Below are positions 9,442 to 36,480 of a DNA stretch of 64,000 bases, in pieces. The translations under genes were made by a program, and so were the position numbers. Where the stretch lies: contig NIVC01003908.1 in NCBI GenBank assembly GCA_002269645.1, positions 1-64,000 on the forward strand, given 5' to 3'. The DNA is from Macrostomum lignano. Lineage: Eukaryota. Position 1 is the stretch's first letter. Each line of letters begins with the position of its first letter. The notes beneath the pieces are model-generated. The model saw only the letters and a program-made list of their open reading frames with translations, did not search any database and was not told the DNA's origin.

Positions 9442-9535
9442 TTTTTTCTCTAGAAAAAATAATAAAAAAATTATAAAACTATCCGGTTGAAAGATCTGTT
9501 TTCTTTTTGATAATTCCATCTGCACCGCCGGTTGT

Positions 9536-10345
9536 CTAGGCGGCTCTCGTGACGCCGGAGGATCGCGAGTCCAGCAGGCAGCGGCTGGGCGGCTGACGTT
9601 TGAGAGCGTGCCGGATTACTCCGGCGGGGTCCAGAGCTCCTTCTACTCGATCTGTAGACATGACCGGACGAGCAGCAGATTCTGCTTCATCAATAGCAAT
9701 ATCACGAAGATTGAGTGTTCTCTCCAGACGATTAAGCCTCCTTAGTATTTTACCCCAGGAGCTATACATTCCGTTTAGATAGCTACTGTGTGATACATCC
9801 TTTCTCTTTAATGCTTCAAGTCTTTCTTTGATTCGATCATGCAACGATGTTGACTGAGTCATGAACTCTTCTAAATTCCTCACTTTACCTGTGTTGGTTG
9901 CGACGTTTTCTTTAATTCTATCATGCAACGCTGTTGACTGGTTCATGAACTCTTCTAAATTATTTACTTTAGCTGTGTTTGTGAAAACTCCTCCTTCGAG
10001 AATACGCATCCGTCTATCAGTGGAATTTCCCAGAAGATTAACTGATGATCTCAAGCCGTTGATTAGCGAGGCTATCGAAGTTATTTCTGACCTTAGTTCA
10101 TTAGTTGCGTTTAACAACGGCGCATAAAGCTTATCACTTTCAAACTTCTGCCTAGCTACTTTAAGCCTGAGATCTTCCATGTTGATTTGCAACTGGTGCA
10201 TGGAGCGCTCTAGGGCTTTCAGTCTGTTTTTATTCAGTTTGATCTCTGGGATCTCTTCATCAATGTTAATGTAGCGCTTGTCAAGGAAGGAAGTTGTGAG
10301 AGTGCTGTTGCCTGTAGTTGACTCACCTGCAAAGTTTATCGACAT
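9536..10345 (-). CDS. Coiled-coil protein, candidate fibre/spike
   Basis: 269-aa ORF with heptad pattern and a 28-aa tandem repeat (TNTAKVNNLEEFMNQSTALHDRIKENVA). Confidence 0.55.
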   Translation of the reverse strand: MSINFAGESTTGNSTLTTSFLDKRYINIDEEIPEIKLNKNRLKALERSMHQLQINMEDLRLKVARQKFESDKLYAPLLNATNELRSEITSIASLINGLRSSVNLLGNSTDRRMRILEGGVFTNTAKVNNLEEFMNQSTALHDRIKENVATNTGKVRNLEEFMTQSTSLHDRIKERLEALKRKDVSHSSYLNGMYSSWGKILRRLNRLERTLNLRDIAIDEAESAARPVMSTDRVEGALDPAGVIRHALKRQPPSRCLLDSRSSGVTRAA

Positions 10346-10361
10346 CTTTTAATAGCAAATT

Positions 10362-11162
10362 TTAAATTACAGTTCTTTTTTCTTTGCTGATAATCACAAA
10401 CTGGTAAGGCTGATTCCACTTGTCATAGCAAAGATTAACGAATTCCTCTTGTGAAATCTTTCTGCTTGAGTTTTTTGTTGGATTTATGAAATAGGCAGGC
10501 GCAATGACCTCATTGTAAAATCTTTTTAACCTGTCCTGTGGAATGGTTGGAAACAGGAGAATCAGATTGCAGTTCCCACGAATTGTTTTGTTCGGGAGCT
10601 CGAACCAATTCTGTGCAATGTAAATTACATTGCAATTGTTATGTCGCCCTCTTGTAAAATAGTTTTCTATCTGCTTCTGTGGGCCTGTCATACAATCATC
10701 AAAGACGATCAAATGCTTTCTCCCCTTTTCTAGCTCATCTGGTTGGGGTAGAAGTTTGGTCTTTGGATCAGCCTGTGGATCTCCATAGGTGAACACTTTA
10801 ATGTTCTGCCATTTTTCATTGTCTTTGAGGTGCTTTGCATATTCAGCAGCTACAATTTCAGGGTTACTGGGAAGGCTCATTTGGTTATTAAAACATGCAA
10901 TAATGTCCTCTTTGTGCAGTTTGTTTTGCAATCCAGAAATCAACATTTTATACTCATCTTGATACAGTGTGGGAGAGTAGATGTGCAGAGTGTCATAGTC
11001 GATAAAGCCAGGTCTAAGAAGCATGTTAAAGACTCTGAATGTTTTACCTGAACCTGATGAACCAACAACAATGCATCTGAAGTGACTCGGAATTGACTCG
11101 TGATGAGAAAACTTAATCTGATTACGCGTCCAGTGAGGATTGAAGTCGTTTGAAAAGTCCAT
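10362..11162 (-). CDS. A32/FtsK-HerA packaging ATPase
   Basis: Walker A VGSSGSGKT, Walker B LIVFDD, FTRGRHNNCNVIYIAQ. True start taken as MDFS. Confidence 0.93.
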   Translation of the reverse strand: MDFSNDFNPHWTRNQIKFSHHESIPSHFRCIVVGSSGSGKTFRVFNMLLRPGFIDYDTLHIYSPTLYQDEYKMLISGLQNKLHKEDIIACFNNQMSLPSNPEIVAAEYAKHLKDNEKWQNIKVFTYGDPQADPKTKLLPQPDELEKGRKHLIVFDDCMTGPQKQIENYFTRGRHNNCNVIYIAQNWFELPNKTIRGNCNLILLFPTIPQDRLKRFYNEVIAPAYFINPTKNSSRKISQEEFVNLCYDKWNQPYQFVIISKEKRTVI

Positions 11163-11199
11163 TTTTTCTATGATGAAAAAAAATTTAAATAATAAATAA

Positions 11200-11346
11200 T
11201 TTAGATGTGTCATTTCGGGACTTAGATGTGTCATTTTGGGACTTAGATGTGTCATTTTGGTACTTAATTGTGTCATTTCGGGACTTAGATGTGTCATTTC
11301 GGGACTTAGATGTGTCATTTTGGGACTTAGATGTGTCATTTCGGGA
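11200..11346. repeat. 21-bp tandem repeat, 7 copies
   Basis: Unit CTTAGATGTGTCATTTYGGGA, directly upstream of the ATPase start. Confidence 0.95.
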
Positions 11347-11374
11347 CTAGTCTTGTACCCTCGGAAAGTACCCT

Positions 11375-11764
11375 TTAGTCAAATTTGAAACCACTTCCTT
11401 TTTTAATGCTAGCCCTCATCTTCTCATAGACTGCAGGGTCCACACTGTCTGGATTTGGGGCCAATGGAGCCAGCGGGGCCAGTGGAGGCTGAATCTCTTG
11501 TTTAGGTGTTACAGTATCCTTTATCTTTTTGGCTGCTGTGGCTACACTGCCAGCCGCTTCGGCAACGTTCTTGATGTTCTCTTTGTTCTCTCCAATGACC
11601 TTAAAAATCTTGGCCCCCTGAGCGATCAAATCGGCAAGACCGTTCCCTGAGCGTTCTTTTCTTGGATAGTGGCCTGCAGGGAAAAGTCCAGATCCGCGTT
11701 TAATGAGATTAAGTTCCTCTTTGTCATAGTATTTGTCCACGTCTTTCTCAAAAATAATCGGCAT
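11375..11764 (-). CDS. Small basic putative core/maturation protein
   Basis: Starts MPIIF after an A-run. Three GxG motifs (KRGSG, RSGNG, KKGSG). Confidence 0.6.
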   Translation of the reverse strand: MPIIFEKDVDKYYDKEELNLIKRGSGLFPAGHYPRKERSGNGLADLIAQGAKIFKVIGENKENIKNVAEAAGSVATAAKKIKDTVTPKQEIQPPLAPLAPLAPNPDSVDPAVYEKMRASIKKGSGFKFD

Positions 11765-11780
11765 TTTTACTTGAAATAAA

Positions 11781-13001
11781 TTATTTTTTGTTGAACCGCG
11801 AAAGCAGAAGCTCTCTCGCCCGTTTGTCAATATACTTCTTTTCCATCATTTTGTCCAGGATGTTGACAAATTCTTTTCTATTTTCATCTTTCATTCCGGT
11901 CTTTGCTGCTCCTAGAAGAACCGCTACTCGCTTGTAGATTTCAGAAATTCCTTTTCCTGTTGAGGGCGGTTGGTCTTGGGGTTGTGGAGTTGGTTGGGCT
12001 TGTAGCTGCTGGGGAGGTGATGCAAAAGACTGCTCACTTTCAGAGATGGAACTGTCATGTGGTGCCTGTCTTTGTTGAGGTGTGAAAACTCTTTGCTTGA
12101 TTCTGTTCATTCGATCTGGAGAGTGTTGTTCTAAGTGTTGCCAGGCATCTGGGTGATCATTTTTATATTTAGCTACTTGAGTCGGATCTGCATTTTCCAG
12201 TTGCCTGAGTACTTCTGTGAAATGTTGCTGCTGCTGTGGTTGTGGTTGTTGTTGCTGTTGTTGTTCTAGATATTTTATGACTTCCGCCTGATCTGGCAAA
12301 TCGAACCATTGTTTAAAGTGCTTGTACTTTTTGAATTTAGTCAGGTTGACACCGCTATCGTACATGTGTTTCAAAACTTCTGGGACCTTTAGTATTTCTA
12401 TATCTCTAACAAGAGAAAAAGTCACTAGATCTCTATAGTTCTTTAGCTGTTTGTCCGAGATTCTCTCTTGGTTCTTGGTCATAAAAGTCAGTAAGGTTTC
12501 TGTGAAAGGAATGCTCTTAGTTTCTGAGCCTTTGACAACAGAAATATTTTCCTTATTTATGTCGATATAATATTCCACTGGTTCATTATAAATATTTTTT
12601 CTCCACATACTTATTCCAAATACATATTTCCCATCATGTTCGACACGCTCTACTGGTCCAAAAATGTTATCTGTCACTTTTAGTTGTGATTGATGTGGTT
12701 GTGATTGTTGTTGTGATTGTTGTGGTTGCGGTTGTGTCTGTGGTTGCGGTTGTATCTGTGGTGCTTCTGGAATTTTACCCAAAACCTTTTGCACTTGGGT
12801 TTCCTGTATGTCGTCGATAGTTTCTTTGACCTGATCAATATTTTTCTTAGCTTCTCCATACCCGGGTTTATGAAACTCTGTGGCTGCTTGGACAAACTCA
12901 TTGTAGGATTGTTGCTCCTTATTTATTAGCCCGGTAACTCGTTTCTCTGCTTGTGCTAGCTTCTCCAATTCAGATATCTGCTGTGTACTTTTCCGCTTCA
13001 T
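11781..13001 (-). CDS. Gln-rich Polinton structural-module protein of unknown function
   Basis: 406-aa intact ORF. TGKG followed by RVAVLLGAAKTG...EFVNILDKM, a C-terminal motif of the kind seen in Polinton proteins. Confidence 0.65.
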   Translation of the reverse strand: MKRKSTQQISELEKLAQAEKRVTGLINKEQQSYNEFVQAATEFHKPGYGEAKKNIDQVKETIDDIQETQVQKVLGKIPEAPQIQPQPQTQPQPQQSQQQSQPHQSQLKVTDNIFGPVERVEHDGKYVFGISMWRKNIYNEPVEYYIDINKENISVVKGSETKSIPFTETLLTFMTKNQERISDKQLKNYRDLVTFSLVRDIEILKVPEVLKHMYDSGVNLTKFKKYKHFKQWFDLPDQAEVIKYLEQQQQQQPQPQQQQHFTEVLRQLENADPTQVAKYKNDHPDAWQHLEQHSPDRMNRIKQRVFTPQQRQAPHDSSISESEQSFASPPQQLQAQPTPQPQDQPPSTGKGISEIYKRVAVLLGAAKTGMKDENRKEFVNILDKMMEKKYIDKRARELLLSRFNKK

Positions 13002-13031
13002 TTCTTATTTTATTTTATTTTTAGTTAAAAA

Positions 13032-14318
13032 ATGAACGACCCACTGACACCAGTTTTCTACAAGATTAACAAGCCTATTTTGAGTGATGATAGCACAATC
13101 AAAGCGACTCAGGTAAGAGTTCCCAGTCAGGAAAATCAGAATGAAACTAATCTTGGTCCTGGTCAAACACTGACATTTACATACAATGGATGTTCGTCTC
13201 TGGTTAGTGTGCACAGTCTTAAGAGCGGCTTCCATATGACATTTCAATTCAAGACAAAAGGTGGTGCGGATGCGGCTCGTGCTAACGTTGACAAGCATGA
13301 TGCGGATGTGGCTCTGATCAGTAACTTTTGGGCGTACATGTTCAAGGAATTTAGTGTATCGAATGGGAGCACAGAGTTGGAGCGAATCGCCAACTTTGGA
13401 ATTGTCTATGACGCTCATTGTTTGATCGAGAATCCTGATTTTATTCAGTTGGGAAGTGGTGCGGGTTTTATTGCAGATGAAAAAGAAGGAGACATCAATG
13501 ACAGTGGCTATAAAAAGAGGAAGAAGAGATACAACTATGCATTGCAAGGTGCTGATGATGCTGCTAAGAACCCGCAGTATCGGTCTGTTGATGTATTTGT
13601 ACCATTGAGATTCATGAGTGGATTCTGTAATACATTTAATCGACTGACTAGTAACTTTAGCTACACCTTTAGGATGACTAGAGATGATCGCAGTAGAGTG
13701 TTGTGGACTGGGGCGGACCACACAAGGATGGAGGTGAAGCTAACCGGAATCGAGCTGTATTTGGAAGTCATTGAGCCAAAGACCGCACTAAAAGCAGACT
13801 ATCTTAAGGCAATAGAGAAGGACATTGATGTTGCATACACGGCCTACATGTGTCGAGATGAGCGAAACGAAACTAGAACAAACATCTGCATTAAAGAGGG
13901 ATCATGCAGCAATCCAAGGTATATCATTATTAATATGAGAAACCCAAATAGCATTATACGCTACATGCATGGAGACGTGCGGTCCATTCAGCATGAAATC
14001 AGTGATAATCTTTACCCTGCACTGCCACAAAATGGAGATTTCAGTCAGAACAAGATTAGCAAATTTTACAGCGAGTTGGTCGACTTGGCTGTGAAAGAGA
14101 ACAATGGAATTGCTATCACTGCTCTTCAATATGGAACTCTATATCCGATGTTTGGCGCTGATGTGTCTGCCAGACAAATGCCTACTGATAACAGCCCTGT
14201 GAATATCGTGACTAACATTGAAAGGACTGCCGCAACACCCGTGGACCTGTACATTGTCTATGCATTTGAGAGGAAGGTGAAGCTTAACATGATCAACAAT
14301 TCATCCAGTAAAGTTTAA
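13032..14318 (+). CDS. Major capsid protein (double jelly-roll, hexon-like)
   Basis: 428-aa intact beta-rich ORF. PILSDDST N-terminus, VFVPLRFMSGFC motif, lies just before the penton. Confidence 0.85.
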   Translation: MNDPLTPVFYKINKPILSDDSTIKATQVRVPSQENQNETNLGPGQTLTFTYNGCSSLVSVHSLKSGFHMTFQFKTKGGADAARANVDKHDADVALISNFWAYMFKEFSVSNGSTELERIANFGIVYDAHCLIENPDFIQLGSGAGFIADEKEGDINDSGYKKRKKRYNYALQGADDAAKNPQYRSVDVFVPLRFMSGFCNTFNRLTSNFSYTFRMTRDDRSRVLWTGADHTRMEVKLTGIELYLEVIEPKTALKADYLKAIEKDIDVAYTAYMCRDERNETRTNICIKEGSCSNPRYIIINMRNPNSIIRYMHGDVRSIQHEISDNLYPALPQNGDFSQNKISKFYSELVDLAVKENNGIAITALQYGTLYPMFGADVSARQMPTDNSPVNIVTNIERTAATPVDLYIVYAFERKVKLNMINNSSSKV

Positions 14319-14340
14319 ATATTTTTTTTAGGACAAAAAA

Positions 14341-15204
14341 ATGGAAGCTATAGCCGAAAGACTAAATAACATTGTTTCACACTCTAAGGAGAGCATTCCT
14401 ATTACAATAACTGGGCGAATTAATGACTCAAACGGGATGTTTGTTGAAAAATTAGAGCAGGCGATTCGCCTGGATCCAGGCGCTAATTACCATGTCTATC
14501 TTAACGACTTCACTGGTTGGTCAAACGTTCCCAATGTGATGGCAGCAAATAATAAGTTTTATTACAAATGGAAAGGTGCAGCAGCAGACCCTGTGGTATT
14601 CCATGTGAGCACGCAAAGTGTGGATACCTACAATAACTTTCTAGAAAATGTCTTTACTAAGAGAGGCCATTTTGAGACACCTGATGCGAGTAAGCCAGAG
14701 AAGAAACTGTTCCCTGTCAAACTAACCTATGATCTCACTGTAATGAGAGTGGTCATGCAAGTTCACAAAGATGCGGAGGTTGAGTTTAAAGATGACACTT
14801 GGTATAGGGAACTGGGATTCGAGAAGAAAGTTTATAAGGCAGAATCCGCGGCGCGGACCGCCACTCAAGCATCGGGGACTGTTACAATGGTCCGGGAAAG
14901 TGTACGCGGTTTGTTCTTAGCACCCAATATAGCAGACATTGTAAAGGGTTTGAATATTCTAATCAGAAGCAATCTCAGTCTTGATTGGGTATTTAAGGGA
15001 AAGCGAACGAATATTTTGTACAACATCTCCAACTCTGTTGCTGGAGGACAGATGGTGGTAGAGAAACCAAATCCAGTGAAAAGAGTTGTATTGAGTAATA
15101 AGGAGATTCACGAGATTGTGCTACAGTTTGAGACTGAAGATGGGATGGGTGTTGATTTCAACGGTGAAGAGTTTGTATTGACGTTGATCATTGAGAGAAT
15201 GTAA
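14341..15204 (+). CDS. Minor capsid protein (penton-like)
   Basis: IRLDP...WSNVPNV N-terminus. TNILYNI...KEIHEIVLQFETEDGMGVDFNGEEFVLTLII C-terminus. Confidence 0.85.
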   Translation: MEAIAERLNNIVSHSKESIPITITGRINDSNGMFVEKLEQAIRLDPGANYHVYLNDFTGWSNVPNVMAANNKFYYKWKGAAADPVVFHVSTQSVDTYNNFLENVFTKRGHFETPDASKPEKKLFPVKLTYDLTVMRVVMQVHKDAEVEFKDDTWYRELGFEKKVYKAESAARTATQASGTVTMVRESVRGLFLAPNIADIVKGLNILIRSNLSLDWVFKGKRTNILYNISNSVAGGQMVVEKPNPVKRVVLSNKEIHEIVLQFETEDGMGVDFNGEEFVLTLIIERM

Positions 15205-17369: not shown

Positions 17370-18700
17370 AAAACCTACAACAAGTTTCTCGTGGACACTT
17401 GAGCCTCGGTTTACATCGTTTCACCTCAACTATTTAATGCACTTGTTCAAGATACAAACGTTCGTTTAATTACTACTGCCGGAGCCACCATACCAGTTTG
17501 CATGTCGGTCCTACTGGATGTCTCAATCCGCAGTTTGCGTCGCGCCTTCTAGTGGACCTTTCTCGTGGCCTCAGTGGCAAAATCCACCATTGGTTACGAC
17601 TTCTTGGCTCACCATGGATTAGTTGTCTATTGCCGGCGCAAACACGATTTAGACTCAGAAACGGGATTATCTACTGTTACCTGGTCAATTTCAAATGTTC
17701 ATTGTAGCCCATTCACTGTATCGGTTGGACTGCCACCCAACCTGGATTCTCGGACGAGCACGCTGTTCACAAATTGTTGCAGATTGTTTTTTTTAGTTGA
17801 AGGCAGAGCCCTTCCGCCAGCTTCAGAGGTCAAGCACGACACTGTTCTCCGGCTAGACACTGGTAGTGGACAACCGGTTCACTTGCGACCCCGGCAACTG
17901 CACCCTGCAAAAATGCAGGCTACAAAGCAGGAGTTGCAGCAACTAATCGATGCAGGCTACCTCAGACCATCCTCAAGCGCTTGGTCGTCACCCCTCCACA
18001 TGTCACCCAAGGGCTGGCGTCAATGCGGTGACTATCGCGAACTGAACAAACCAACAAATCCTGACAACTATCCGGTTCCACAATTTCAAACCTTCACTAC
18101 GTACCTACGGAAGCACTGTGTTTTCAAAGTTAGACCTCGTTCGCACCTTTCATCAAATTCCACTCGTAGAAGAAGATATCTGCGAAACCGCTATCACCAC
18201 ACCGTTTGGATTGTTAAGTACACTCGAATGCCCTTCGGCCAGCGAAATGCAGCGCAAACATTCCAACGCTTCATCGACTCTGTTTTTTTTGACGGACTGT
18301 CATTCGTCATCTCTTGCATCGATGATGTCTTGATCTCCTCGAATACTAGGGAAGACCACTACTCGCATTTGGAACAAGTTTTGGACCGCCTACGAACACA
18401 CGGACTGCAGGTTCACCTGAAGAAATGCGAGTTCTTTCAATCTGAGGTAGATTTCCTCGGCCACCGCGTGACTCCAGAAGGAGTAAGACCTCTCTAGAAT
18501 TAGATTTAAATAATCACTAACTGGCCGACACCCACTGATTCAAATGCACTTCGGCGCTTGCTCGGAGTCGTCGGTCTCCATCGCCGATTCGTTTCAAACT
18601 TCGCTGACCGCATCTGTCCGCTGCAAGACCTACTCATTACATCACTAGTCAGCAGGAAACTTCCAATTGACAGAGTAGCACATAAACTCTTTTTATGTGA
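17370..18700 (+). pseudogene. Ty3/Gypsy pol remnant (protease, reverse transcriptase, connection), truncated
   Basis: [66 protein letters not shown]. Contains stops and frameshifts. Confidence 0.92.
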
Positions 18701-19140
18701 ATGATAAATGAGCAACTACGGGACAAAATGAGATTCAAAGCTGATTTAGCACGAATGGAGAGATTACTGGCTCCGATACTAAGTGAAGAGCATCGCCAAA
18801 AAATACGTTTTCGGAACGATCAAGATCTGTAAAATCCGTCGTGGGAGGAGCAACAAAAGATTTGGAATTTTTGGCTGCCAAAGCACAAGAGGAACAGGCC
18901 GCCAAAGCTTGAACTACCATCAACTTGGAGCAAGGATTTAAGCACGCCTCCAACGCCAGCACCTGAAAATAGGAACAAAAGGTTCATTTTTTCCGGAATC
19001 CCCGATAACGACAACTCTGTAAAAAGCTCGTTATCGTGTAGTTAAAACAAAAACTTATTGAGACTCTCGGGTATATAAGCACCAGCCCGGAGCATCTGCG
19101 AGCGCCCGTACCTGCAAATTTTTCTAAACAGACAAGAGAC

Positions 19141-19885
19141 ATGGAGACAGTGCAAGACTTTAACTGCGTCAAGCGAGAGCTGCTGGCACTCAAACCGCGA
19201 GGTCCGAGCTTCAACGGGGTTGAAACGTTTGACATTGAATATGACGAACAGGGACCTCTCTACTTGGCCAATGCGGTCCCTGTTTTGATCGTCAAAGGTG
19301 TGCGTACTGACAACGAAGGTCGCGAATTCATCATCATTGCACAAAAACACATTGAAAGCTGCATACCCTACACTTTCAACACTGTGGCGGAGCACCTTTC
19401 CAGCGAAAGTCTAGCTCTGCTGGGCTACAACCCAGCATTTGGAGGTGACAGTGCAGCGTTTGGGCTGGCTCACGACTTTAAAATGTACGACCAAAACGGT
19501 AGAGGATTACAAAAACAAGAGCGGCTACTACAGGATTCTGTTTACTCTCGACACGGCCGTGATTCGAGACGCTGTTTTGACCGCCATGCCAAAAATTCAA
19601 CAGCTACAGTTTGTCGAAGAAGCCAAACAGGCATTCGATCGTTGCTATTGGACGCCACCTCCAAAAATCAAGGTAGGCTCCAAGAAAGTAAGCAAGAAAG
19701 CAAAGAAACCACCAAAGCTTGTCAAGGAGAAGCAGCCAAAGGCGCCTAAAAATCAGGCCAGAAAGCGACAGCATCAATCGAAACTAGTAGCAGCCAAAGA
19801 ATCAAAGAAGCGGTCGAAAGCCCCCAAGAAGGATACGAAAGTAAAAACTGCCGAAAAATCTACTTGCAGAACGTCGAGTGTGTGA
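19141..19885 (+). pseudogene. Unknown protein with Lys-rich C-terminal tail, one probable frameshift near 19440
   Basis: Two overlapping ORFs (19141.. and 19439..19885) join into one plausible protein ending KKVSKKAKKPPK... Confidence 0.5.
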
Positions 19886-20334
19886 ACCGAGTGTTTTGCG
19901 CGAAATGGAGCCGCATGCCTGACTTGGACTGGGCGAGCGCACGGACATTTCGCAGACCAAGAGATCTTATCAATTTGCGAATAGGAAAATGTACAATCAA
20001 CTTTTTTCAGCGTTCTTTGTCTGCAATTGTATTCGGTTGTCGCTCAGTCAACCCAGTTTTGCGTCTTTTTCCTCAATGTAAACCAATTTCTGTTGTTGTT
20101 ACCACTAGTACTTACCGCGCTGAAGTAGACAGATGGCCAAATTTTTTCCAAATTGCATACTCCGGGTCCCACTGGGTGAAGTGGGAGTGCGAAGTTTTCA
20201 ATGGAATAGTAATAAAGTCTCCATTTCGCAAGGTGCAATGCGGAAAGAATGGCCGCCTTGTTTTTCTTGGAATACGAAGCTTTAAAGAGCTCTGTCAAAT
20301 GTACGATCATGTGACTAGCGTTTTGCATGTCTAA
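19864..20334 (+). CDS. Divergent TATA-box-binding-protein-like protein
   Basis: WECEVFNGIVIK...KNGRLVFLGIRSFKELCQMYDHVTSVL aligns by eye to TBP YEPELFPGLIYR...VSGKVVLTGAK...EIYEAFENIYPIL. First repeat INLRI...AIVFGCRS aligns to VIMRI...MVCTGAKS. Confidence 0.65.
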   Translation: MQNVECVNRVFCAKWSRMPDLDWASARTFRRPRDLINLRIGKCTINFFQRSLSAIVFGCRSVNPVLRLFPQCKPISVVVTTSTYRAEVDRWPNFFQIAYSGSHWVKWECEVFNGIVIKSPFRKVQCGKNGRLVFLGIRSFKELCQMYDHVTSVLHV

Positions 20335-20474
20335 TCCATGTAGCTGTTGCGTAACTTTACTGTTTTACCACTGTACTGAATTTGTATGTACGTACAAGCT
20401 GCTATGAAATTGTTTATAAATATATTGTGCATAAATTGCAGTGCACTGCAACCAACATCTTTGAGCTAAACAAA

Positions 20475-20831
20475 ATGACAAACGGAATCTCCAGACTATG
20501 TTCTTGTCGCGGCGAGCTCGCAGAGCTCGCCAAAGCCCGTCCCACTCTTCGGCGGGCAATTATTCGAGGTGCAGGCAAGGAACTGATTCATTGTCTCTGT
20601 GAATTGAGTCACAACGTACTCCGGGGAAATATCGATCTTTCTCCGAAACAGTATCTGCGATTAAAGCGATACAGAAGATCGTTGCGTGAATTGGCAGACA
20701 CAAAATTGTCTATAAATAGGAAGAAGAATGTGCTTCTCTCGAATCCTCAAGTCGGTGGTTTTCTACCCATCCTTGCATCCGTTGCTGCACCGCTAATATC
20801 AAGCCTGTTTGGCGGACTACTTGGTCGCTAA
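20475..20831 (+). CDS. Basic core protein with pX-like tail
   Basis: LIHCLCELSHNVLRGNI...LKRYRRSLRELAD...QVGG-FLPILASVAAPLI. Confidence 0.75.
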   Translation: MTNGISRLCSCRGELAELAKARPTLRRAIIRGAGKELIHCLCELSHNVLRGNIDLSPKQYLRLKRYRRSLRELADTKLSINRKKNVLLSNPQVGGFLPILASVAAPLISSLFGGLLGR

Positions 20832-20832
20832 A

Positions 20833-21470
20833 ATGAATAAATACGTTGTTGTACCAGAAGAAGAATTTAATAGACTAAGTCAAGGCGCACCCCGAGAAAT
20901 TGCATCCAAAACAGAATAGGAAAACTCAGTGAATACAACACTCAACTCCAAAATAAACTAAGTCAGATCAAGCAAAAGAAGAGTAATCGTTTTCCTGAAC
21001 GACAACAACGAGTTTGGGACATGCTGACAGAAAGATACCCAAATTTGGAGTACAACAAGTCGTGGGAAATTGTATTTGATGGAAAAACCTGGCCAGGAAG
21101 CAATATTTTCGATCTATTGAAGGAGATTACATCGAATGAAAGGCGCGACCGCCCAAGCCCAAAATATAGTACCGCTTTTTGGGCCCTGGCCGAAGAGGCA
21201 GATATTGCAAAAGCTCTACTAGGACGACGCCAACAAGAAGAAGTCAGTGTGAAAAAAGAAGTCGGCACGGATCCGGATCGAGACGATTTTTTAGTCGAGC
21301 AAGCAATTGGAACTAATGATTTCTACAACGACTTCCACAAAGACCAAGCCAGTGGCCAGAATGAAGTTAAAAAATTTGAAGATCGTGGCAGCGATGCCTA
21401 CAGGCATGCTTCATACCAACTTCGCGAACCAAAGAGGCGGCAGAAACCAGCAGTAAAATACGAGACGTTA
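20833..21470 (+). pseudogene. Conserved Polinton hypothetical protein, frameshifted
   Basis: MNKYVVVPEEEF start. WEIVFDGKTWPGSNIFDLL motif in a later frame. Confidence 0.55.
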
Positions 21471-21610
21471 AAAAAACTATACATTTTCATGATTTATAAT
21501 CTGTTTTTGGATCATGGGTGCCGCAGCTGTAACTTCAAAGCTTTGCTCAGACAAACCGTCTGTGGAGTTCAAGTGTAATTACTTATGCTGTGCATCGACT
21601 CTAGTCGCGA

Positions 21611-22675
21611 ATGAGGGTGAAAACCGCTCTTCGGAGAGTGTACGAACAGGGGGACGCCGCTTTTACAAATGCTGCCCGTGTATATCGGGAGGCCAAACGG
21701 CTGGTCCCCTCCCTGACGAGACGCCAAACCGACGAATGGCTGAAGACCCAATCGAGCTATACCCGGCACAAGAGGGTTAAAAGAAAATTCCGAACCGGAA
21801 AAGTAATGTCGGGAGGCTTCATGGAAACTGTGCAAGCGGATTTGATGGACATGTCGCGATACGAACAATGGAATGATGGTCATCGATATATTCTAGTTGC
21901 AATTGATGTGCTTAGCAAATTGGCTTTTTGCCAGCCAATAAAATTGAAAAGCGACACTCCAAAGGCTTTTGAAAGCATGATCAAAGACTTCCCCATTAAG
22001 CCTTTATATCTACACGTTGATCGAGGTACCGAGTTTTATAACAATCGCATGCAGAACTTACTGAAAGCCCATAATATCAAAATGTACAGTACAAACTCTG
22101 TATACAAGGCAAATATGGCTGAAAGGCTGATTAGGACTCTCCGAAAACGTTTAGCTCGCTACTTTGAGCATAAAAACACGTGGCGTTGGATCGACTATTT
22201 GCCAATATTGGTTAAAAGTTACAACACAGTACACTCTACTATTGATATGAAACCTTCGATTGTCGGTCTGCACAACCAAAAAGAATTGTGGGAAAAGCTC
22301 TACAAGGATCCTGAATATGATGAACCAGTTTACCAAAAAGGGGACTTTGTCAGAATTTCAAAATCTCGTCGAGCCTTTGACAAGGAAGCATACGATATGT
22401 ACAGCGAAGAAGTTTACGTTGTGTCTCAAGTATGCCCGGGACCGCCTCATTTTTATCGCATTTCCGACCTATCTGGAGAACAAATCGAGGGTCGATTCTA
22501 CTATAATGAACTTTCAAAGACGGTTCGATCGGACCGCTTTGTTATAGACAAAATTCTGCGTCGCAATGTCGTCATCAATGGTGTTGCTCATCATTTCGTT
22601 AGTTGGCGCGGCTATCCCGAGTCGTTCAATGCATTTGTACCAGTTGAGGAAGTTATAAATATAAGACAAGGATGA
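21611..22675 (+). CDS. rve integrase with C-terminal chromodomain
   Basis: QADLMDM, YILVAIDVLSK, VDRGTEF, AERLIRTL, HSTIDMKP. Ends IDKIL...FVSWRGYPESFNAFV. Confidence 0.95.
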   Translation: MRVKTALRRVYEQGDAAFTNAARVYREAKRLVPSLTRRQTDEWLKTQSSYTRHKRVKRKFRTGKVMSGGFMETVQADLMDMSRYEQWNDGHRYILVAIDVLSKLAFCQPIKLKSDTPKAFESMIKDFPIKPLYLHVDRGTEFYNNRMQNLLKAHNIKMYSTNSVYKANMAERLIRTLRKRLARYFEHKNTWRWIDYLPILVKSYNTVHSTIDMKPSIVGLHNQKELWEKLYKDPEYDEPVYQKGDFVRISKSRRAFDKEAYDMYSEEVYVVSQVCPGPPHFYRISDLSGEQIEGRFYYNELSKTVRSDRFVIDKILRRNVVINGVAHHFVSWRGYPESFNAFVPVEEVINIRQG

Positions 22676-22709
22676 ACACACATACACTCGAAACGTGTAG
22701 TATATTACA

Positions 22710-23858
22710 ATGCATCTATTCCTACCTAGCAATGCGTGCGTTGAGCACTATCCTGAGAATAATTCGGCACATTATAGCATTAATTTGCCCGACACCCTCC
22801 ACTTTCCGAATCATGAAGTCTGCATCGAACGGATCTACTTTTGTAAAGAATTCAAAACCGTCCCCGATAATCGAATGGTTGATGTCCTGACCAACGCTCC
22901 CGAGAATGAAGTGATTGACATTGAGGTGAGAGAAAAACCCGCCTCCACGTATAAACAGTTTGCGTCGGTTTCTCTCGCCGCGGGGCTATCAACAGCCAAC
23001 GAAGTGGTTGATGCAATCATCGCCGCTCTAAAATATGAGCAAGACGATAATGCGATGATTTGCATTGAGCGTTCACAGGAAGGCCAAATTTCAATTGTGA
23101 ACAAATCATGGTACGGTGCGAACATTAGGCTGTCCAGTAATGTGTGTAGCATGTTTAAAAAGGTTGACGACGCTGGAAATAAATCAAATATCGAAGTAAC
23201 GACTTTTTTATTAAACCCAAGAAATTCTTTAGTATTCGCTATAGAATTGGAGTCCTCCTCCATAGAGATTCCCATGACTCTAACGTTTGAAAAGAGTGTC
23301 TGGCCTTCTAGAACGTCACTGCGGATTGCTAAAGGGTTCTACCGCACGCCTGACGAGCTCTTAAATTATGTTAATGGAGCGCTTTGGAGCGTCGTTTCAA
23401 AGCTCCCAATAAGTCCAGCGACGAGAGTGGATGCATTCCGCTACAACCCTTTTCTGAACCGGTGTGAGTACAAACCCATTGAAAACATTTTATTCGACAT
23501 TGGAGAGCTTGCTGCCATTCTCGGCTTTCGCGAAGATGTTTTCAATGAAACTCCAAAGACGAAACGACCAATCGATTTAACAAATGGTGTACAAACTATG
23601 TACATCTATTCAAATATTGTCGACTCTGCCATTGTTGAAGACGTCAAAGTCCCCCTGCTTGGGGCAATTTATTTGAATGAAAATGTATACGGCGAACGAG
23701 AGTACTGCGAGTTTGTCAATCCATCCTACTTACCGTTGGTGAAACACCCATTCAAAACCATTGAGGTGCAAATCTGTGACGACATGGGCAAGTTAATGGA
23801 TCGGATTCTTCGAGGCAAAACTGTTTTATCGATCAACATTCGTGAAATTAAGCTATAA
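22710..23858 (+). CDS. Minor capsid protein (penton-like)
   Basis: LFLPSN...YPEN...LP N-terminus. MYIYSNIV...PLL...YLPL...FKTIEVQICDDMG C-terminus. Confidence 0.88.
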   Translation: MHLFLPSNACVEHYPENNSAHYSINLPDTLHFPNHEVCIERIYFCKEFKTVPDNRMVDVLTNAPENEVIDIEVREKPASTYKQFASVSLAAGLSTANEVVDAIIAALKYEQDDNAMICIERSQEGQISIVNKSWYGANIRLSSNVCSMFKKVDDAGNKSNIEVTTFLLNPRNSLVFAIELESSSIEIPMTLTFEKSVWPSRTSLRIAKGFYRTPDELLNYVNGALWSVVSKLPISPATRVDAFRYNPFLNRCEYKPIENILFDIGELAAILGFREDVFNETPKTKRPIDLTNGVQTMYIYSNIVDSAIVEDVKVPLLGAIYLNENVYGEREYCEFVNPSYLPLVKHPFKTIEVQICDDMGKLMDRILRGKTVLSINIREIKL

Positions 23859-23902
23859 ATAAAGAAGTTTTCACGAATAAAAGGTAGCAACTGATCGACA
23901 AT

Positions 23903-24271
23903 ATGCCTTCAATCTTGATCGGAGGAGCTTTACCGGTATTTTCCGGTGCACAGCGCGGCAACGGCCTGTTTAGCAGCATTGCCCGATTTGCCCTGCCAAT
24001 TTTAAAGAGTTTTGGCAAAAATATTCTTCGCCACGGAACACGAGCCCTAGCTACAACAGTTAACGACACACTCGATCAAGGCGGGAACTTGAAAGAAGCA
24101 GCATTGCGTAACTCTGTCCAGGCAGCTAAAGATGCTTTCAAGGACACTGTCACACAACGAGGTAGCGGCAGACAAAGACGAAGAAAAATGACTAGCAAAA
24201 AAACGAGAAAAAGACTGCAGCATTCTGACATTTTCGACTCTATAAATAAAAAAACCCGTGCCAATAACTGA
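23903..24271 (+). CDS. Basic core protein (pVII-like)
   Basis: QRGNGLFSSIARFALPILK and QRGSGRQRRRK. Confidence 0.75.
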   Translation: MPSILIGGALPVFSGAQRGNGLFSSIARFALPILKSFGKNILRHGTRALATTVNDTLDQGGNLKEAALRNSVQAAKDAFKDTVTQRGSGRQRRRKMTSKKTRKRLQHSDIFDSINKKTRANN

Positions 24272-24314
24272 TCTGTCTATTAGAGCACCACACTAAGCCG
24301 CTGTTGAAAGAAAA

Positions 24315-25597
24315 ATGACTGAGTGCCTGTGTACAAAGTCGGAATTCGAGCTATTTGCTCCTCGCGCCCACCAAATTGCAGCAATTAGCGCTACCACTGA
24401 AGAAGTTCACCCTGTTGCCAGTGTTGAAAATGCCAGCGTGGTCGAATTTAGGATTGTTGGTGGTGAGACGTTTATCGATCTTAACGACATTGACCTCGAG
24501 ATTAAGGCCCGCGTTAGGCAATCTAATGGCACAAATCTTGCTGCTGATTCGAATGTTGCGCCGGTCAATTACGTCCTTGAAAGCATGTTTAAAAACGTCA
24601 CGTTGACAATCAACGGGACACACGTAGAGTCGAGCAATAACAACCACGCTTACAAGGCCTATATTCGCACGTGTTTGAATTACGGACACGATTCAAAAAC
24701 CAACCAACTGAGAATGATGGGCTACGCAAAGGACGCTGGAGGTCAAATGGCTGTGGTTGGAAATCCTGGCTTTGTAGCCCGCAAGGCGATGGCGGCAAAC
24801 TCACGCACCTTTCACCTTTATGGACCTCTTAGTTTAGACTTTTTTGTTACCAACGACCGAATGCTACTGCCATACACTGATATGGTAATTACGCTGACCA
24901 TGCACAATTCCGGGTTCGTTCTGGAAAACCACGCGGACGGGGTTGATGCGCGGCTAGTACTCGAGAGTGCCAAACTACATGTGCGCCGCGTCAAGGCAAA
25001 CCCCCAATTGGCATTGGAGATTGAAGAACAACTAGGCAAACAGAATGCAATCTATCCGATTGAGCGACTTGTTGTGCAAAATACTTCAGTGGCTGGCGGT
25101 GTTCGGACATGTAAATCAATAATATATTTCCTGAACAAAAGCCTAAACTAGTGGTTGTTGGCATGGTGAACAGCGGCGCATACAACGGTGTGGCTACACA
25201 TAACCCGTTTAATTTTGAGCCATTTGGTGCCGACAGTGTCGCTCTGTATAAGGACGGAGTCAGTCTGTGTGGACAACCGTTTACTCCTCGATTCGGTGTT
25301 CATAACTATGCTCGCGAGTATGCCATGCTACTAAAAAGCCTAGGAAAGATGAATCGGGACCTGGATATTGACGTATCATATTCCGACTATGGAGCTGGCT
25401 ACTGCTTCTTCGCCTGGAATCTCATGCCCGACATGGAGCTGGGCGGGCATAGCATGCCTCGCGAGCGAGGGAATCTGACGCTACAAATAAAGTTTTCTGC
25501 TGCCTTGGCCGCAGGAATCAACGTGTTGGTGTTTGGCTACTTTGACAATACTGTGCAAATCACTCGCGGTCGTCAGGTTATTCTAGACTACGTGTAG
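24315..25597 (+). pseudogene. Major capsid protein, split by one frameshift near 25130
   Basis: CTKSEFELF...HPVASV...VEFRI...IDL N-terminus. NPFNFEPF...YCFFAWNL...GNLTLQIKF...DNTVQI C-terminus. Confidence 0.9.
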
Positions 25598-25644
25598 AAA
25601 CAAACATTTTTTTATTCCCAAATAACGGCCATATTCATGCCGAT

Positions 25645-26094
25645 ATGAATAGTCTAGATATATTAGAACGTCTAATACTGCCTGTCCCTGTTCGAGTAAC
25701 ACCCGTTGACAGGATTCCGCAGCCTGTTTATCCTGCTGCATACGTGATTAACTTTGACACTGGCAATCTACCAGGCACTCACTGGGCTTTAATTTGTCTT
25801 CATGCCGATGAGAGCGTGAAATTTTTTGACCCCTTGTGTATCGATCCTGTGCCAGATTTATTAAAGTTGTGGATCGCAAAGTATGTCTCCGCGGAGGTTG
25901 CAATGAACCGGCATCCTGTACAGCATCCGCTGAGTGTGACCTGCGGGGCTCATGTAATATTTGTGGCTGAAAAACACTTTCTGGAGGGTCTGTTAATTGA
26001 AAAAATATTGCGCGACTGTTATAGCACAAATCTTTACGAGAACGACTTGATGGTGCAGAATCACTGTCTACAAATAAAGCAGCATCATCCATAA
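25645..26094 (+). CDS. Adenain-like cysteine protease
   Basis: YVINFDTGNLPGTHW, FFDP and VQHPLSVTCG (His/Asp/Gln/Cys). Confidence 0.9.
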   Translation: MNSLDILERLILPVPVRVTPVDRIPQPVYPAAYVINFDTGNLPGTHWALICLHADESVKFFDPLCIDPVPDLLKLWIAKYVSAEVAMNRHPVQHPLSVTCGAHVIFVAEKHFLEGLLIEKILRDCYSTNLYENDLMVQNHCLQIKQHHP

Positions 26095-26117
26095 ATATGA
26101 TTGGGCGGCCTATCAAA

Positions 26118-26745
26118 ATGTATCAAACAATAGACCCTGATTCTTTAAAATTTGCCCCCAAAACGTTGGCAATTTTTGCTGGGGTGGCTCAAAGCGGCAA
26201 GACCACACTTGTAAAAAACCTATTAAGACAAGAATTTTTTCAAGATCCGAAGCCGATTCGCGTAGACTGGTTTGGTCATTATCCGGATCCTGAACTGTTT
26301 GAATTGCCGTACCCTGTAAATTTTCGTTCGTGTACATTTGATCCTGAACAATGTCCCTGAACCAAATATTCTGCTTGTCGTCGACGACCAAATGCATGCC
26401 ATGGAAAAGAGTGGCGCTTTTACAACTTTTTTCACGCGCAAAGTCTCCCACGTGGGGTTCCGACTTTGGTATCTTGTGCAAAACCTGTTTGCAAAGGGTA
26501 TGGAGCACCGAACTCAGTCGCTCAATTCGAACTACCTTGTTTTATTCCGCAATGTACGGGATGCCAGCACAGTGTCTCATATTGCAAGGCAGCTGGTCCC
26601 CACTAATCCGAAAAGTTTTGTCAAAACGTATGAGGATGCTACTCGCGACCCCTACTCATACTTGATTGTAAACTGTTTGCAAAATGCTCCTGCTCGCTAT
26701 TATTCAAACGTTTTGGGTCGTCACCCAATTGTGTATGCTAAATAA
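26118..26745 (+). pseudogene. A32/FtsK packaging ATPase, one frameshift near 26340
   Basis: GVAQSGKTT, LLVVDDQM, FFTR-VSH, LVQNLF...RTQSLNSNYLVLFRNVRD. Confidence 0.9.
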
Positions 26746-28059
26746 ATCGTATACGTATCAAAGCTCGGCCGGCTTTTTGTGTAAATATATATATACGCCT
26801 TTTGAAAACTTATTTGGGAGAGGGGGTTGGGGGATGACGTAATTGTCTCGGAGTGTCGACGAGGGCTGAATTCTAGAGAGTGAAGTATGGAAGGGGTGGA
26901 TATAACAGTGTGGACAGCAGCCATTTACTGGCTGACTGACTCATCATGCCTCCGCGCGGGGGCCGCCAATTAATTGTGAGGGGCGACAGAATATTTTCTT
27001 GGATGGGTGGGCGCTACAGTTCTGTGCGTACACGAAGTTTGGGTTTGATCGAACAGCTATGGGGTGGGCGGACGCTACAATTCTGTGCGTACACCAATTT
27101 TGGGTATGATCGACAGTTAATTCTGCGCTACACCAATGCTGCATTGTGCGGGGCTGGGGGCGCGCGCGTTTCTACGTACAACGGCTATGGTGAAGCGCTA
27201 ATTATGCGTACTATATTGTACTCGTCGCTTCTGTACGATACAGTGTACACTGATTACATGTATAATTAGATTTACATGAGAGCATAAATGTCTCACATAA
27301 TGACTCTGGACCAATTAGAATCGGTCTAATGTATTTAGATAGGCGTTGAATTTGCATTGGCTCTGACACCCACCTCACCTCCAAAACCCAGCTCTAACTG
27401 CACATTACGTAGTGAAGCGATTTGACCAACATAGCCTTGTACGTTCGATCAAACGATAAGAACGCATCGTTGCCAATCAGCTTCAGATTTCGCTTCTCTA
27501 ATAAATACCGGTGCACAGACGCGCGAAAACACGTGTCAGTGTACTTACAGCATATGGCTTTCCATCAGCTGTTTTTAACTGAACGGACGAACAGGCGTAG
27601 ATAGGAGTTGAGATACCTCACTGGCATATTCTCGATGTGATCAGGTAAATTCTCCGCGCGTAGAAACTCTTTTAGTTTGCGAATATGCAATTCAGTTTGC
27701 TTAACCGTCGACTTCGTTTACTTTCTTGCTCCACATGTAGGCCAGCTTCTTCTTCTTCGGTCAATTCACGAAACAGGTTTCCAACGTGATCTTCCGGTGT
27801 AGGATTGCGTAGTTCCTCATCAATTAGCCTCTCTTGCTCATCCGTCAGCCCTGTCCATCGAAGATGCCGTCACGGATTTTCTGACGGTGGAGGGCACGGA
27901 AGTCACGAGCGGTGATTGGAGGCCGGACCGACAACCGGACAGGTGGGCGAGCCAGCGGACGGGTGGGGTAGTTGTTCCATTGGCCCGGCCAACGCAACGC
28001 CTGCCGTTGGAAAGGCCAACGGATGTAGGCTTTGATAGCCGATGCAGCGCGGGTGCCTT

Positions 28060-29230
28060 TCTTGGCGACGGGGGCGAGGCGGGCCTTGGCGAAGAGGAGA
28101 CGCGCAGGTGATCTGAGTTCCTGCCGGACGTAGACAGCGAAGCCGTAAGCACTAGGAGAGCCATCTGAGAACATGACGATGCGTACCGACTGGCTGGCGT
28201 TTTAAATAGCAAAGTGGGGGACGCGGCGATCTCATTGAGCCGGAGGAGATCGGGCAGATCAGAGCTTTGCCCAAGCATCGCGAGTCACCTGGCTGGCGGC
28301 CTCGTCTCAGGAAGTGGAGACCTGAAAGGCCTGACGACCAGCGTCGTCCCAGAAGACAACCAGCAAGAATGAGTGATGCAGTAGTCGACTGGATCGTAGG
28401 AGGTGTAGACACCTTGACAGAGTGTGCGGCAAGTCAACTTTCGGGACGCGACAAATTGGGCTTTTTGAGTCAGATTTTGTCGAAGGTTGGTATAGGCCCA
28501 AGAGGCCGACAAAATTGCCTGTGATGCTTTGTTCGTCGGGCAGACAGGGAGGTTGCTGGCGAAGCTCGCGGAGACCGTAGACGAGGCGGGCAGTGTCGTC
28601 TTCAATTTTGGCACCGACGACGAGGTTGTCGATGTAGAGGCCGCCGATAATGCGCTGTATTTCAAGGCGAATGAGGGCCGAATTCTCGGATATAATAGCG
28701 TCCCGACAAACTTTATGAAGGACTGCGAGCAGGATCCAAGGACTGGGCGAGGCACCCATGAGGCAGCCAGATCTCGAAGTTGCCCTGGACGAGTGGTTTT
28801 GTGATGTATACGGGAGGATGACGCGGAGGGCGTCACTGTGAGGCGCGTTGGCACCGATTTGGTAGAATGGGGCCTTGAGATCGGACGTGATGGCGAAGCG
28901 ATGGCTCCGATGTAGCGAGTTTAACAGGTTGGGCCCGGGCTCGAGGAAGTTGTTCAGTGTAGCACCGGTGAGAGAGGTCCTGGCGGAGGCATCGACGACG
29001 GGGCGGATACTCGTTGAGTGCGAACGCTCGTTCTTGACGACTGGAAAGTGGGGTAATCGGGAAAATAGGTTTCAATAGTCTGGGCGGCTGACTTTGCCGG
29101 CGGCGGGCCGCTGCATGGCTTCGACGTGCGGCTGCCCCGCAACAGGGGCCGCTTCAGCTGTGTTGTGGTCGTCCTAAGACTGATGCGTGCCTTGACTGAG
29201 CGTGAGCTTGTTCACAGATCATAAACCCCT
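28060..29230 (-). pseudogene. BEL/Pao retrotransposon pol fragment (RT and RNase H)
   Basis: GASPSPWIL...LYIDNLVVGA and FSDGSPSAYGFAVY...LLFAKARLAP. Confidence 0.8.
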
Positions 29231-35944: not shown

Positions 35945-36480
35945 TTCACGTGAAAACTTACTAATCTTGTTTTCCGAGAAATTACCATTTTGTGGCAATG
36001 CAGGGTAAAGATTATCACTGATTTCATGCTGGACTGATCGTACTGTTCGTAGCGTCCTATGCTATTCGAATTCCTCAAAGTGACGATAATGTACCTTGGA
36101 TTGCTACAGGAACCCTCTTTAATGCAGATATTGTGTAGAATCATTCCGCTCATCTCTGCACATATAAGCTGTATAAGCAACATCAATGTCTTTTTCAATC
36201 GCCCTCAAGTATTCAGCTTTGAGTGCAGTCTTGGGCTCAATAATTTCTAAGTACAGCTTTACGCCAGTTAGCTTAATCTCCATCGATGTATGATTAGCCC
36301 CTGACCAAATTCCTCTGTTCCGATCATCTCTAGTCAGTCTAAATGTGTAGCTAAAATTGCTTGTCAGTCGATTAAAACTATTACAGAAACCGCTCATAAA
36401 TGTCTTGACGGCACAAAAATGTCTACGGACCTATACAGTGCTTTTCTTACAGCATCAGTTGCAGCCACGAGAGGGTAATT
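35945..36480 (-). pseudogene. Internal fragment of the family-1 major capsid gene
   Basis: MSGFCNSFNRLTSNFSYTFR...IEKDIDVAYTAYMCRDERN closely matches 13032..14318. Confidence 0.92.

Follow-up and report, generated by a model that had tools for sequence, protein, structure and literature searches.

A TBP-like exon and a conserved TATA-like word in a Polinton-like element of Macrostomum lignano that lacks its own polymerase

The stretch of Macrostomum lignano DNA analyzed here, called the window throughout, comprises the first 64,000 nucleotides of contig NIVC01003908.1 (assembly GCA_002269645.1). At 18703..27413 on its forward strand lies a Polinton-like element that encodes a protein with a TATA-binding protein (TBP) fold and repeats the exact word TATAAATA ahead of its genes. 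On balance, we favor a reading in which this TBP reads the fixed word and recruits host RNA polymerase II (Pol II) for the late genes, with the protein-primed DNA polymerase B (pPolB) supplied in trans by partner elements of two kinds, X1 and X2. The element belongs to subfamily A of a pPolB-less, Polinton-type lineage that we call L1, which also has a subfamily B. The window copy is missing its left ~1.4 kb and has several frameshifted genes; across 8.4 kb it is 97% identical to a 10,199-bp copy bounded by terminal inverted repeats (TIRs) elsewhere in the genome (G000:C594:106026-116224). An earlier note on this DNA had proposed that the element runs a late transcription program with its own TBP. 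A selected TBP fold, conserved boxes and a separate word for each TBP-bearing lineage speak for that program, whereas TATAAATA fits the host consensus too.

The TBP-like exon and its gene model

Both TBP signatures claimed for the open frame at 19864..20334, WECEVFNGIVIK and NGRLVFLGIRS, are present, and the TBP-like exon (19870..20334, forward strand) is a real, selected, degenerate TBP-fold domain with two lobes. The genome holds 88 matches to it; near-full-length copies fall into subfamily A (21 at 93-100% identity, window included) and subfamily B (21 at 75%). Relative to its sisters, the window copy is three residues short in the last sheet. Between subfamilies A and B, the ratio of nonsynonymous to synonymous change (dN/dS) is 0.071 for the TBP exon, 0.076 for the integrase and 0.055 for the core gene. 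The window copy has no Pfam match. The subfamily-B copy matches PF00352 at E 8.5e-5 and 22.8 bits (gathering cut-off 22.9) and an outside relative, P0005, matches the family at 24.6 bits; five of seven proteins scanned match the family, one of them above the cut-off. Structure prediction, which the earlier note had suggested as a check, bears the fold out. An AlphaFold2 model of the unbroken subfamily-B copy, made from an 8-row alignment (pLDDT 77.5, pTM 0.55), gave 44 Foldseek matches in PDB at E<=1e-3, every one a TBP (best 1.4e-7). Among viral models, the matches were TBPs of nucleocytoplasmic large DNA viruses (NCLDV) and the herpesvirus proteins U58/BcRF1 (TMq 0.61-0.62; BcRF1 0.62).

Searches by sequence reached less far. 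The ESM Atlas returned no usable match, and the window protein drew haloalkane dehalogenase noise alone from PDB; with alignment A1, TBPs appeared in PDB at E 0.045-1.8, ranked below one unrelated match. Outside relatives are few, two at 63-66% identity and four from a profile search, one of the four being an archaeal-type TBP; P0003-P0007 are single proteins from ENA, Logan or JGI. Scans of viral contigs for the setting of these relatives found nothing. A metagenome locus (L149) considered as the context of a relative was rejected because it carries a bacterial lipoprotein gene and no Polinton genes. In a TBP tree, the proteins of L1, of a further lineage (L3) and P0006/7 fall apart from host and archaeal TBPs and those of lineages L2 and L4 (96/97), with long-branch warnings; because of these long branches we treat the tree as unreliable and claim neither origin nor monophyly.

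The earlier note had taken the exon for a 156-aa gene. Its frame is indeed open, but position 19864 is a TTG and the domain is probably a second exon beginning at 19870. The first in-frame ATG in the window lies at 19915 (139 aa); subfamily B does not have it, and the first methionine of the B frame comes 11 residues before its end. With a TTG start and no conserved ATG, the 156-aa frame is thus probably not the real gene model. The upstream ORF, ORF226 (19141..19672, forward strand; frameshifted in the window copy), is the likely exon 1. Between the two lies a predicted phase-0 GT..AG intron (19673..19869, forward strand) that, if read through, encodes a Lys-rich tail. Its ends, AAG/GTAGG (19672/19673) and TTGCAG/AAC (19869/19870), are kept in both subfamilies. 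They are invariant at all 20 subfamily-A loci, where the spacer measures 196, 197, 199, 200 or 206 nt; as these lengths fall in different frames, intron length is indifferent to frame. In subfamily B, the predicted intron is 67 nt. ORF226 runs for exactly 180 codons up to the donor in both A and B, and L3 has a like layout, with a strong polypyrimidine acceptor ahead of an ATG-less TBP frame in three of three copies. The invariant ends, the varying spacer, the 180 codons and the L3 layout make splicing likely, so that the TBP exon is likely joined to the upstream ORF in a ~337-aa product. Frameshifting or TTG initiation is disfavored because the offset to the upstream ORF differs among copies (196 vs 197 nt) and the intron ends stay fixed, though a TTG start is still conceivable. 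ORF226 itself has no match in Pfam, PHROGs, PDB or the Atlas and its AlphaFold2 model is unusable (pLDDT 35.5); it may resemble single-stranded DNA-binding proteins of the OB fold.

A conserved word ahead of the late genes

The word TATAAATA stands exactly where the earlier note had placed it, at five forward-strand positions in the window copy, each 49-122 nt before the next ATG. The first box (20415..20422) lies 60 nt before the core-protein ORF and the second (20711..20718) within the coding sequence of the core protein, 122 nt upstream of ORF193. A third (22654..22661) is inside the coding end of the integrase, 56 nt before the penton ORF. The fourth (23854..23861), which overlaps an AATAAA and the stop codon of the penton gene, is 49 nt upstream of the next ORF; the fifth (24241..24248) falls within a pVII-type ORF, 74 nt upstream of the gene for the major capsid protein. 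Boxes do precede core, penton and capsid genes, as had been claimed, but they are not confined to structural genes, since two further boxes in full copies precede non-structural ORFs; the protease has no box. The CATAAATA reported before the ATPase is present at 26090 but was rejected as a conserved box, being absent from subfamily B. A one-mismatch word, TACAAATA (26069..26076, forward strand), is found in both subfamilies, 48-49 nt upstream of the ATPase ATG (26118).

The window as a whole holds 17 copies of TATAAATA against 2.96 expected. Within 18703-26760 there are five on the sense strand and none on the antisense strand, with 0.1 expected, and none of 200 dinucleotide shuffles of the element, a control that the earlier note had named, reached five. 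Full A and B copies carry seven sense and no antisense copies (0/200 shuffles). The seven sites are homologous in A and B: at the end of a Fic gene, before the core gene, within it, before ORF92/integrase, at the integrase end, at the penton stop and before the major capsid protein (MCP) gene. Two of these are gone from the window copy, one through a 9-bp deletion (~21478, end of the ORF193-type gene) and one through truncation. Across 12 copies, 82 of 84 site checks were positive. Although synonymous sites have diverged almost to saturation between the subfamilies (pS 0.66-0.84), the three boxes in coding sequence are identical. All seven boxes sit 25-150 nt before an ATG, a zone that makes up 16.6% of the element (p ~3e-6), and an unbiased ranking of 7-mers puts ATAAATA first in three of three L1 copies.

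These data bear on the proposal that the boxes are polyadenylation signals, stop-codon context or chance and the TBP likeness incidental. The word does continue into AATAAA at two of seven sites in subfamily A and four of seven in B, and two sites overlap a TAA stop. Five of the seven subfamily-A sites have no AATAAA, however, three sites lie in coding sequence with fixed synonymous codons, and the strand and shuffle tests, the TBP fold and dN/dS all point the other way; we regard this proposal as largely refuted and give it very little credence.

A different, canonical TATA box, TATATAAG (19072..19079, forward strand), lies 69 nt before the ATG of ORF226 at 19141. Subfamily B has GGGTATATAAGG and a GC box in the same place, and boxes similar to TATATAAG precede terminal PC4 genes in X1, L2 and L4. 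TATATAAG probably acts as an early promoter, read by the host, for the transcript with the TBP exon. Because the upstream ORF carries this distinct box, two classes of promoters are suggested, one early and one late.

The earlier note had asked whether TBP homologs in other Polintons co-occur with TATAAATA. They exist, but each lineage has its own word. A genome search with PF00352 gave at least 150 listed matches among 330 candidates, including the TBP of the host, another host paralogue and numerous copies that lie next to pPolB genes; further lineages were gathered from these matches and from other MCP relatives. L2, L3 and L4 encode TBPs (Pfam scores of 83 bits for L2, 74 for L4 and 21-32 for L3), and TATAAATA is not enriched in them. 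L2 has 8-9 sense copies of TTAAGAA against 1.5-1.9 expected (4/4 elements, 0/200 shuffles each), L3 has 4-7 of TATAAGC against 0.5-0.7 (4/4 elements, 0-1/200 shuffles) and L4 has 6 of ATAAGAA against 0.8 (1/1 element). These words lie on the sense strand, mostly 30-160 nt ahead of internal genes; the oligonucleotide forms set alongside TATAAATA are CTTAAGAA, TATAAGCA and CTATAAGAA. In the unbiased ranking, they fall among the top six 7-mers in 3/3 L2, 3/4 L3 and 1/1 L4 elements. L5, a lineage that has no TBP, is enriched for none of the four words in either of two elements. We found no account of such word switching in the literature on Polintons and viral TBPs, supplements and Repbase excepted.

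L2 (G000:C754:55653-72145, C114:460183-476982, C393:106807-123169, C878) and L4 (C114:252194-264522) are monopartite Polintons; they encode a clear TBP of two repeats, along with a PC4-like gene and an ORF labeled DEDD-like from its motif, with no Pfam match. Their copies account for most of the PF00352 matches listed, and M. lignano database records at 88% identity to the L2/L4 TBP are annotated as hypothetical or TATA-box-binding protein. In L3 (G000:C2529, C3758, C297), the ATG-less TBP exon lies behind an ORF with a low-complexity tail and ahead of a deoxynucleoside kinase (PF01712 E 2e-15), which in C297 shares one frame with the TBP; the L3 copy C4948 lacks the left, TBP-bearing part.

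The host may read the L1 word instead. The TATA consensus is TATA(T/A)A(A/T)(A/G) (PMC2396422), which TATAAATA matches, and for this reason L1 alone cannot separate reading by its own TBP from reading by that of the host. Host TBP/TFIID would then use the boxes as ordinary strong promoters, and the element's protein would do another job, such as repressing or decoying host or early promoters, binding the replication origin or scaffolding host factors without binding DNA. The genome does contain an ordinary host TBP, half of the DNA-intercalating residues are lost from the element's protein, and some non-consensus boxes still function in yeast (PMC2396422). What this explanation leaves unaccounted for is an invariant TATAAATA beside early-type boxes that vary, and a word of its own in each TBP-bearing lineage, three of which violate the consensus at central positions (L2-L4; consensus from PMC2396422). 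We consider it somewhat unlikely, although a serious competitor to reading by the element's TBP.

The words could also be promoters read by the RNA polymerase of a large DNA virus acting as a helper, in the manner of virophages, with the TBP-like gene modulating the helper. The words of L2-L4 contain TAAG and that of L1 contains TAAAT; TAAAT resembles the late motif of poxviruses, and (A/T)TAAG resembles that of baculoviruses and nudiviruses. Virophages and Polinton-like viruses with promoters in common with giant viruses are on record. Spliceosomal-type introns in the X pPolB genes and before the TBP exons suggest nuclear Pol II, however; the boxes lie 34-140 nt before the ATG without overlapping it, and four words would require several helpers. 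We hold a helper improbable.

The favored reading, in which the TBP of L1 recognizes TATAAATA, must be set against a number of observations. In TBP, four phenylalanines intercalate into DNA and two asparagines are central; alignment to the host TBP confirms the earlier estimate that about two of the four Phe are kept, and one of the two Asn (that of the first repeat) is retained, so that the full set is absent from the L1 protein. The lobes of the subfamily-B model superpose poorly on TBP (TM ~0.46, rmsd ~7 A), and with these losses DNA binding may itself be lost. That TATAAATA is usable by host TBP counts here as well. Late genes without a box include the protease in L1 and L2 and several genes in L3. 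The words of L2-L4 were first picked by eye, the L3 word falls outside the top six in one of four elements, and ATAAGAA is the top word in a TBP-less X1 copy (C173), where it lies within a repeat cluster. A simple cascade fits L2 poorly because its TBP gene itself sits 73-76 nt behind a late word. Four lineages make few independent contrasts, and L5 is a weak control because it is AT-rich and distant.

Further points in the same direction concern splicing and the partners. No contig joint was found at the predicted intron in seven sequencing runs, whose RNA status was guessed (run labels X1, X5, X6 and X10 on the window; X10, X13, X14 and X21 on the subfamily-B copy, X21 yielding no contig), and several run contigs pass unspliced through it; these contigs speak neither for nor against expression. 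The L1 intron has no polypyrimidine tract, and a longer, fused homologue of the TBP exon was not found, a weak test. The pPolB of the X elements may not be the sister of any L1-type element's polymerase. Even so, we think it likely that the TBP-like protein binds its TATA-like word, where it would nucleate a pre-initiation complex of Pol II.

A polymerase-less element and its partners

Full L1 copies measure 10.2-10.5 kb, with TIRs of 590-655 bp, 6-bp target-site duplications (TSDs) and ends ACTAC...GTAGT. They thus have the TIRs of several hundred bp and the 6-bp TSD of a Polinton/Maverick, together with an rve integrase (PF00665 E 2.9e-8) and an MCP, penton, protease and packaging ATPase identified by homology to genes of other lineages and by conserved motifs; L1 lineage proteins gave no direct Pfam capsid match. 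No pPolB was matched by four polymerase queries in three L1 elements, nor found in the ORF lists of the full copies. A pPolB within the element is definitional for Polintons/Mavericks (PMC5499653). The L1 element is therefore Polinton-like but has no polymerase in cis, a point that the earlier note, which called it a Polinton, had missed.

Candidate partners came from a PF03175 search with at least 119 matches listed (91 scored of 974 candidates), many of which belong to the X1 and X2 elements, TIR-bounded and 8.7-9.7 kb long; their pPolB matches the family at E 5e-17 and 1e-27. X1 and X2 encode an intron-containing terminal protein-pPolB (X1 also PC4), and the elements examined contain no integrase, capsid, ATPase, protease or TBP, so that the gene sets of three L1 and four X elements are complementary. 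The X elements have 6-bp TSDs though they lack an integrase, and their ACTAC ends are like those of L1, unlike the AGTAGT starts of L2 and L4. Both tips with a clear TSD could be resolved in 5 of 20 X-type stretches, the others being incomplete, ambiguous or rearranged. The genome has 24 copies of an 18-nt tip, at nine L1A and 15 X2 ends, and nine of a 23-nt tip, at two L1B and seven X1 ends; the reversed controls occur nowhere. Complementary genes on two molecules with common termini, one mark of a bipartite virus, are thus present. Of 58 X-type and 67 L1 places, just one of each kind sit together on a contig, 43.7 kb apart; L1 and X are therefore not the two parts of single insertions that were interrupted.

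The simplest reading that these data suggest is that L1 and X form a mutually trans-dependent bipartite Polinton. More loosely, they may be two non-autonomous families that parasitize each other or an unseen autonomous element. We found no bipartite Polinton in the literature, supplements and Repbase excepted.

We propose a model where the variable, canonical boxes of early genes, of the TATATAAG type, would be read by host TBP. Splicing from 19672 to 19870 would place an N-terminal domain of 180 aa in front of the TBP domain, and the fusion product would bind the late word, with transcription starting ~30 nt downstream. Host Pol II would be recruited in this way and the core, capsid and integrase genes would come on as a late program. 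Replication would depend on the pPolB of the ~9-kb X1/X2 elements with the same termini, and L1 would give back integrase and possibly capsid. It is tempting, if tentative, to extend this to one half of an integrating, bipartite Polinton virus whose units depend on each other and swap terminal modules as they replicate together, and whose relatives hold private TBPs co-evolved with TATAAATA, TTAAGAA, TATAAGC and ATAAGAA; we would put this somewhat short of even. As part of it, the late program is possibly coupled to replication through the spliced N-terminal domain.

The right TIR of the window copy (26910..27413, no strand assigned) ends in ...ACGTAGT and has a 30-nt tip from a set of modules also present on X2 elements. 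Copies with 98-99.6% identity elsewhere diverge strongly at about bases 6-27 of the TIR (window 27380-27413; G000:C181:646907, C807, C1452, C633, C4, C173, C566). These bases usually match at the two ends of one copy and form a small, recombining set of modules common to L1 and X, an exchange that suggests template switching at the termini. A subterminal block of ~200 nt (26738..26937, no strand assigned) matches the left subterminal region of X2, the partner with pPolB alone, at 80-88% identity and contains TATATATATA and TGACGTAA; with TGACTCA, these sites occupy window 26786-26943, within the block common to X2. We take TGACGTAA to be CRE/ATF-like and TGACTCA to be AP-1-like, and the block is possibly an inward-facing, stress-responsive promoter. 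The pPolB genes of X1 and X2 (L129:3655-7950, L138:4811-8944) are split at matching positions by GT-AG introns, which have polypyrimidine tracts and interrupt the catalytic motifs (VS/LYP, LNS/LWGK, DTDS/).

The remaining genes of the window copy all lie on the forward strand. A basic core-like protein (20475..20831), presumably a core protein by its resemblance to Maverick/adintovirus core ORFs, has homologues in L2 and L3 and is followed by the conserved ORF193-type gene (20833..21578, frameshifted). The integrase (21611..22675) combines the rve domain with a C-terminal chromodomain-like part (PF00385 E 0.016). The minor capsid, penton-like protein (22710..23858) has no Pfam match and is labeled from its position and weak similarity to other lineages. 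Next come the small basic core-like ORF (23903..24271), which we take to be pVII-type and which has no family match, and the MCP (24315..25597), 427 aa in intact copies, frameshifted in the window and 27-33% identical to the MCPs of other lineages. The adenain-like cysteine protease (25645..26094), with no TATAAATA upstream, and the packaging ATPase (26097..26745; Walker A GVAQSGKT; frameshifted, with its conserved ATG at 26118) complete the set.

The first gene of subfamily B encodes a Fic-domain protein (L026:1922-2698; PF02661 E 6.6e-14, HPFxDGNGR motif), of which just the 3' end, with its TATAAATA box, is left in subfamily A. Some subfamily-A copies have a ~690-bp tandem duplication of ORF171 (G000:C2246:194878-196516), and a joint of 19125 to 18703 seen in the sequencing runs labeled X1 and X6 corresponds to it. 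A Gypsy-type reverse transcriptase fragment (17553-18497) adjoins the truncated left end, and BEL/Pao-type fragments (DUF5641, DUF1758) lie at 27800-29100 and 43779-47453. A second, unrelated Polinton type at 5500-15204, with an A32 ATPase, a double-jelly-roll capsid, a protease and a PLA2-like gene, has no TBP and no enrichment of the four words; pieces of it are scattered near 2300-3100, 36100-36500, 38100-38600, 49400-50800 and 54100-56000. An array of eight imperfect ~60-nt palindromes (CCACCTCAGAAAATGAAACC...TTTGAGGTGG) and a 47-nt tandem repeat occur at 51534-52914 and 60908-61428.

Significance and known systems

To our knowledge, how animal Polintons time their capsid genes has not been described, and few protein-DNA codes are as conserved as the recognition of TATA by cellular TBP. 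With its four TBP/word pairs, this genome offers a direct test of whether a viral TBP of 150-190 residues can be re-specified to a new core promoter. If these TBPs and words have co-evolved, they would be a natural set of orthogonal pairings of TBP and promoter, able to redirect host Pol II through a single small protein, a minimal counterpart to the six-subunit late complex of herpesviruses and possibly a source of orthogonal promoter tools. A split Polinton, if real, would alter how the group is defined, with pPolB and integrase together in one element, would offer a route to segmented pPolB viruses, and would mean that seemingly defective copies elsewhere, without pPolB or capsid, may be working halves.

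With cellular and NCLDV TBPs (PF00352), the L1 protein shares the two-repeat saddle fold, a YEPE.F-type motif and an S/NG-K/R-V-V-x-G strand. It differs from cellular TBP in its 17-21% identity to that of the host, its short first helix, its two of four Phe and the lack of a start codon of its own. A functional parallel is the late transcription of beta- and gammaherpesviruses, in which a TBP mimic (ORF24/BcRF1/UL87) acts with a TATT(WAA) box (PMC6541308). In both, a viral TBP fold is paired with a short word resembling TATA ahead of structural genes, and host Pol II would, by analogy, serve L1 as well. The herpesvirus mimic, however, is the large, Pol II-binding subunit of a six-member complex (PMC6541308), whereas that of L1 is one 157-aa domain, perhaps fused to 180 aa. 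The herpesvirus box at about -30 is non-canonical, as are the words of L2-L4, and the L1 word is canonical. General scans of the other small ORFs gave no informative family match, and no search was aimed at subunits of the viral pre-initiation complex. If the L1 protein binds its word, the element would work like a minimal herpes-type late system.

Polintons/Mavericks, including adintoviruses (PMC8502044, bioRxiv 10.1101/697771), resemble L1 in their TIRs, 6-bp TSD, integrase, MCP, penton, protease, ATPase, core gene and many copies. L1 differs in having no pPolB inside its TIRs, in its ACTAC...GTAGT ends, its TBP-like exon, the Fic gene of subfamily B and the pPolB-only elements with the same tips. 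In the excerpts of Starrett et al. (10.1101/697771, PMC8502044), a TBP-like gene is labeled solely in figure legends, for non-animal MELD viruses, without promoter analysis. Searches within PMC11071308, 10.1101/2023.08.22.554363, PMC11296320, 10.64898/2026.06.19.733378 and 10.64898/2026.10.13.758929 found no mention of TBP, nor, in the four of them searched for it, of segments or a bipartite genome.

For the split itself, there are two partial parallels. Mobile polinton-related derivatives without polB, like L1 in this respect, occur in Lepidoptera, where polB is replaced by long interspersed element (LINE) or gypsy cargo (Pannagram, 10.1101/2025.02.07.637071); L1 differs in comprising two old subfamilies, both without polB, and in having a reciprocal, polymerase-only partner. 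Bidnaviruses and the segmented Drosophila Vesanto virus, whose segments have common termini (PMC8363768), resemble L1 and X in placing polymerase and structural genes on separate molecules with matching ends. They are single-stranded DNA viruses without an integrase, whereas L1 and X are chromosomally integrated, double-stranded DNA with TSDs, one of them carrying a Polinton capsid module.

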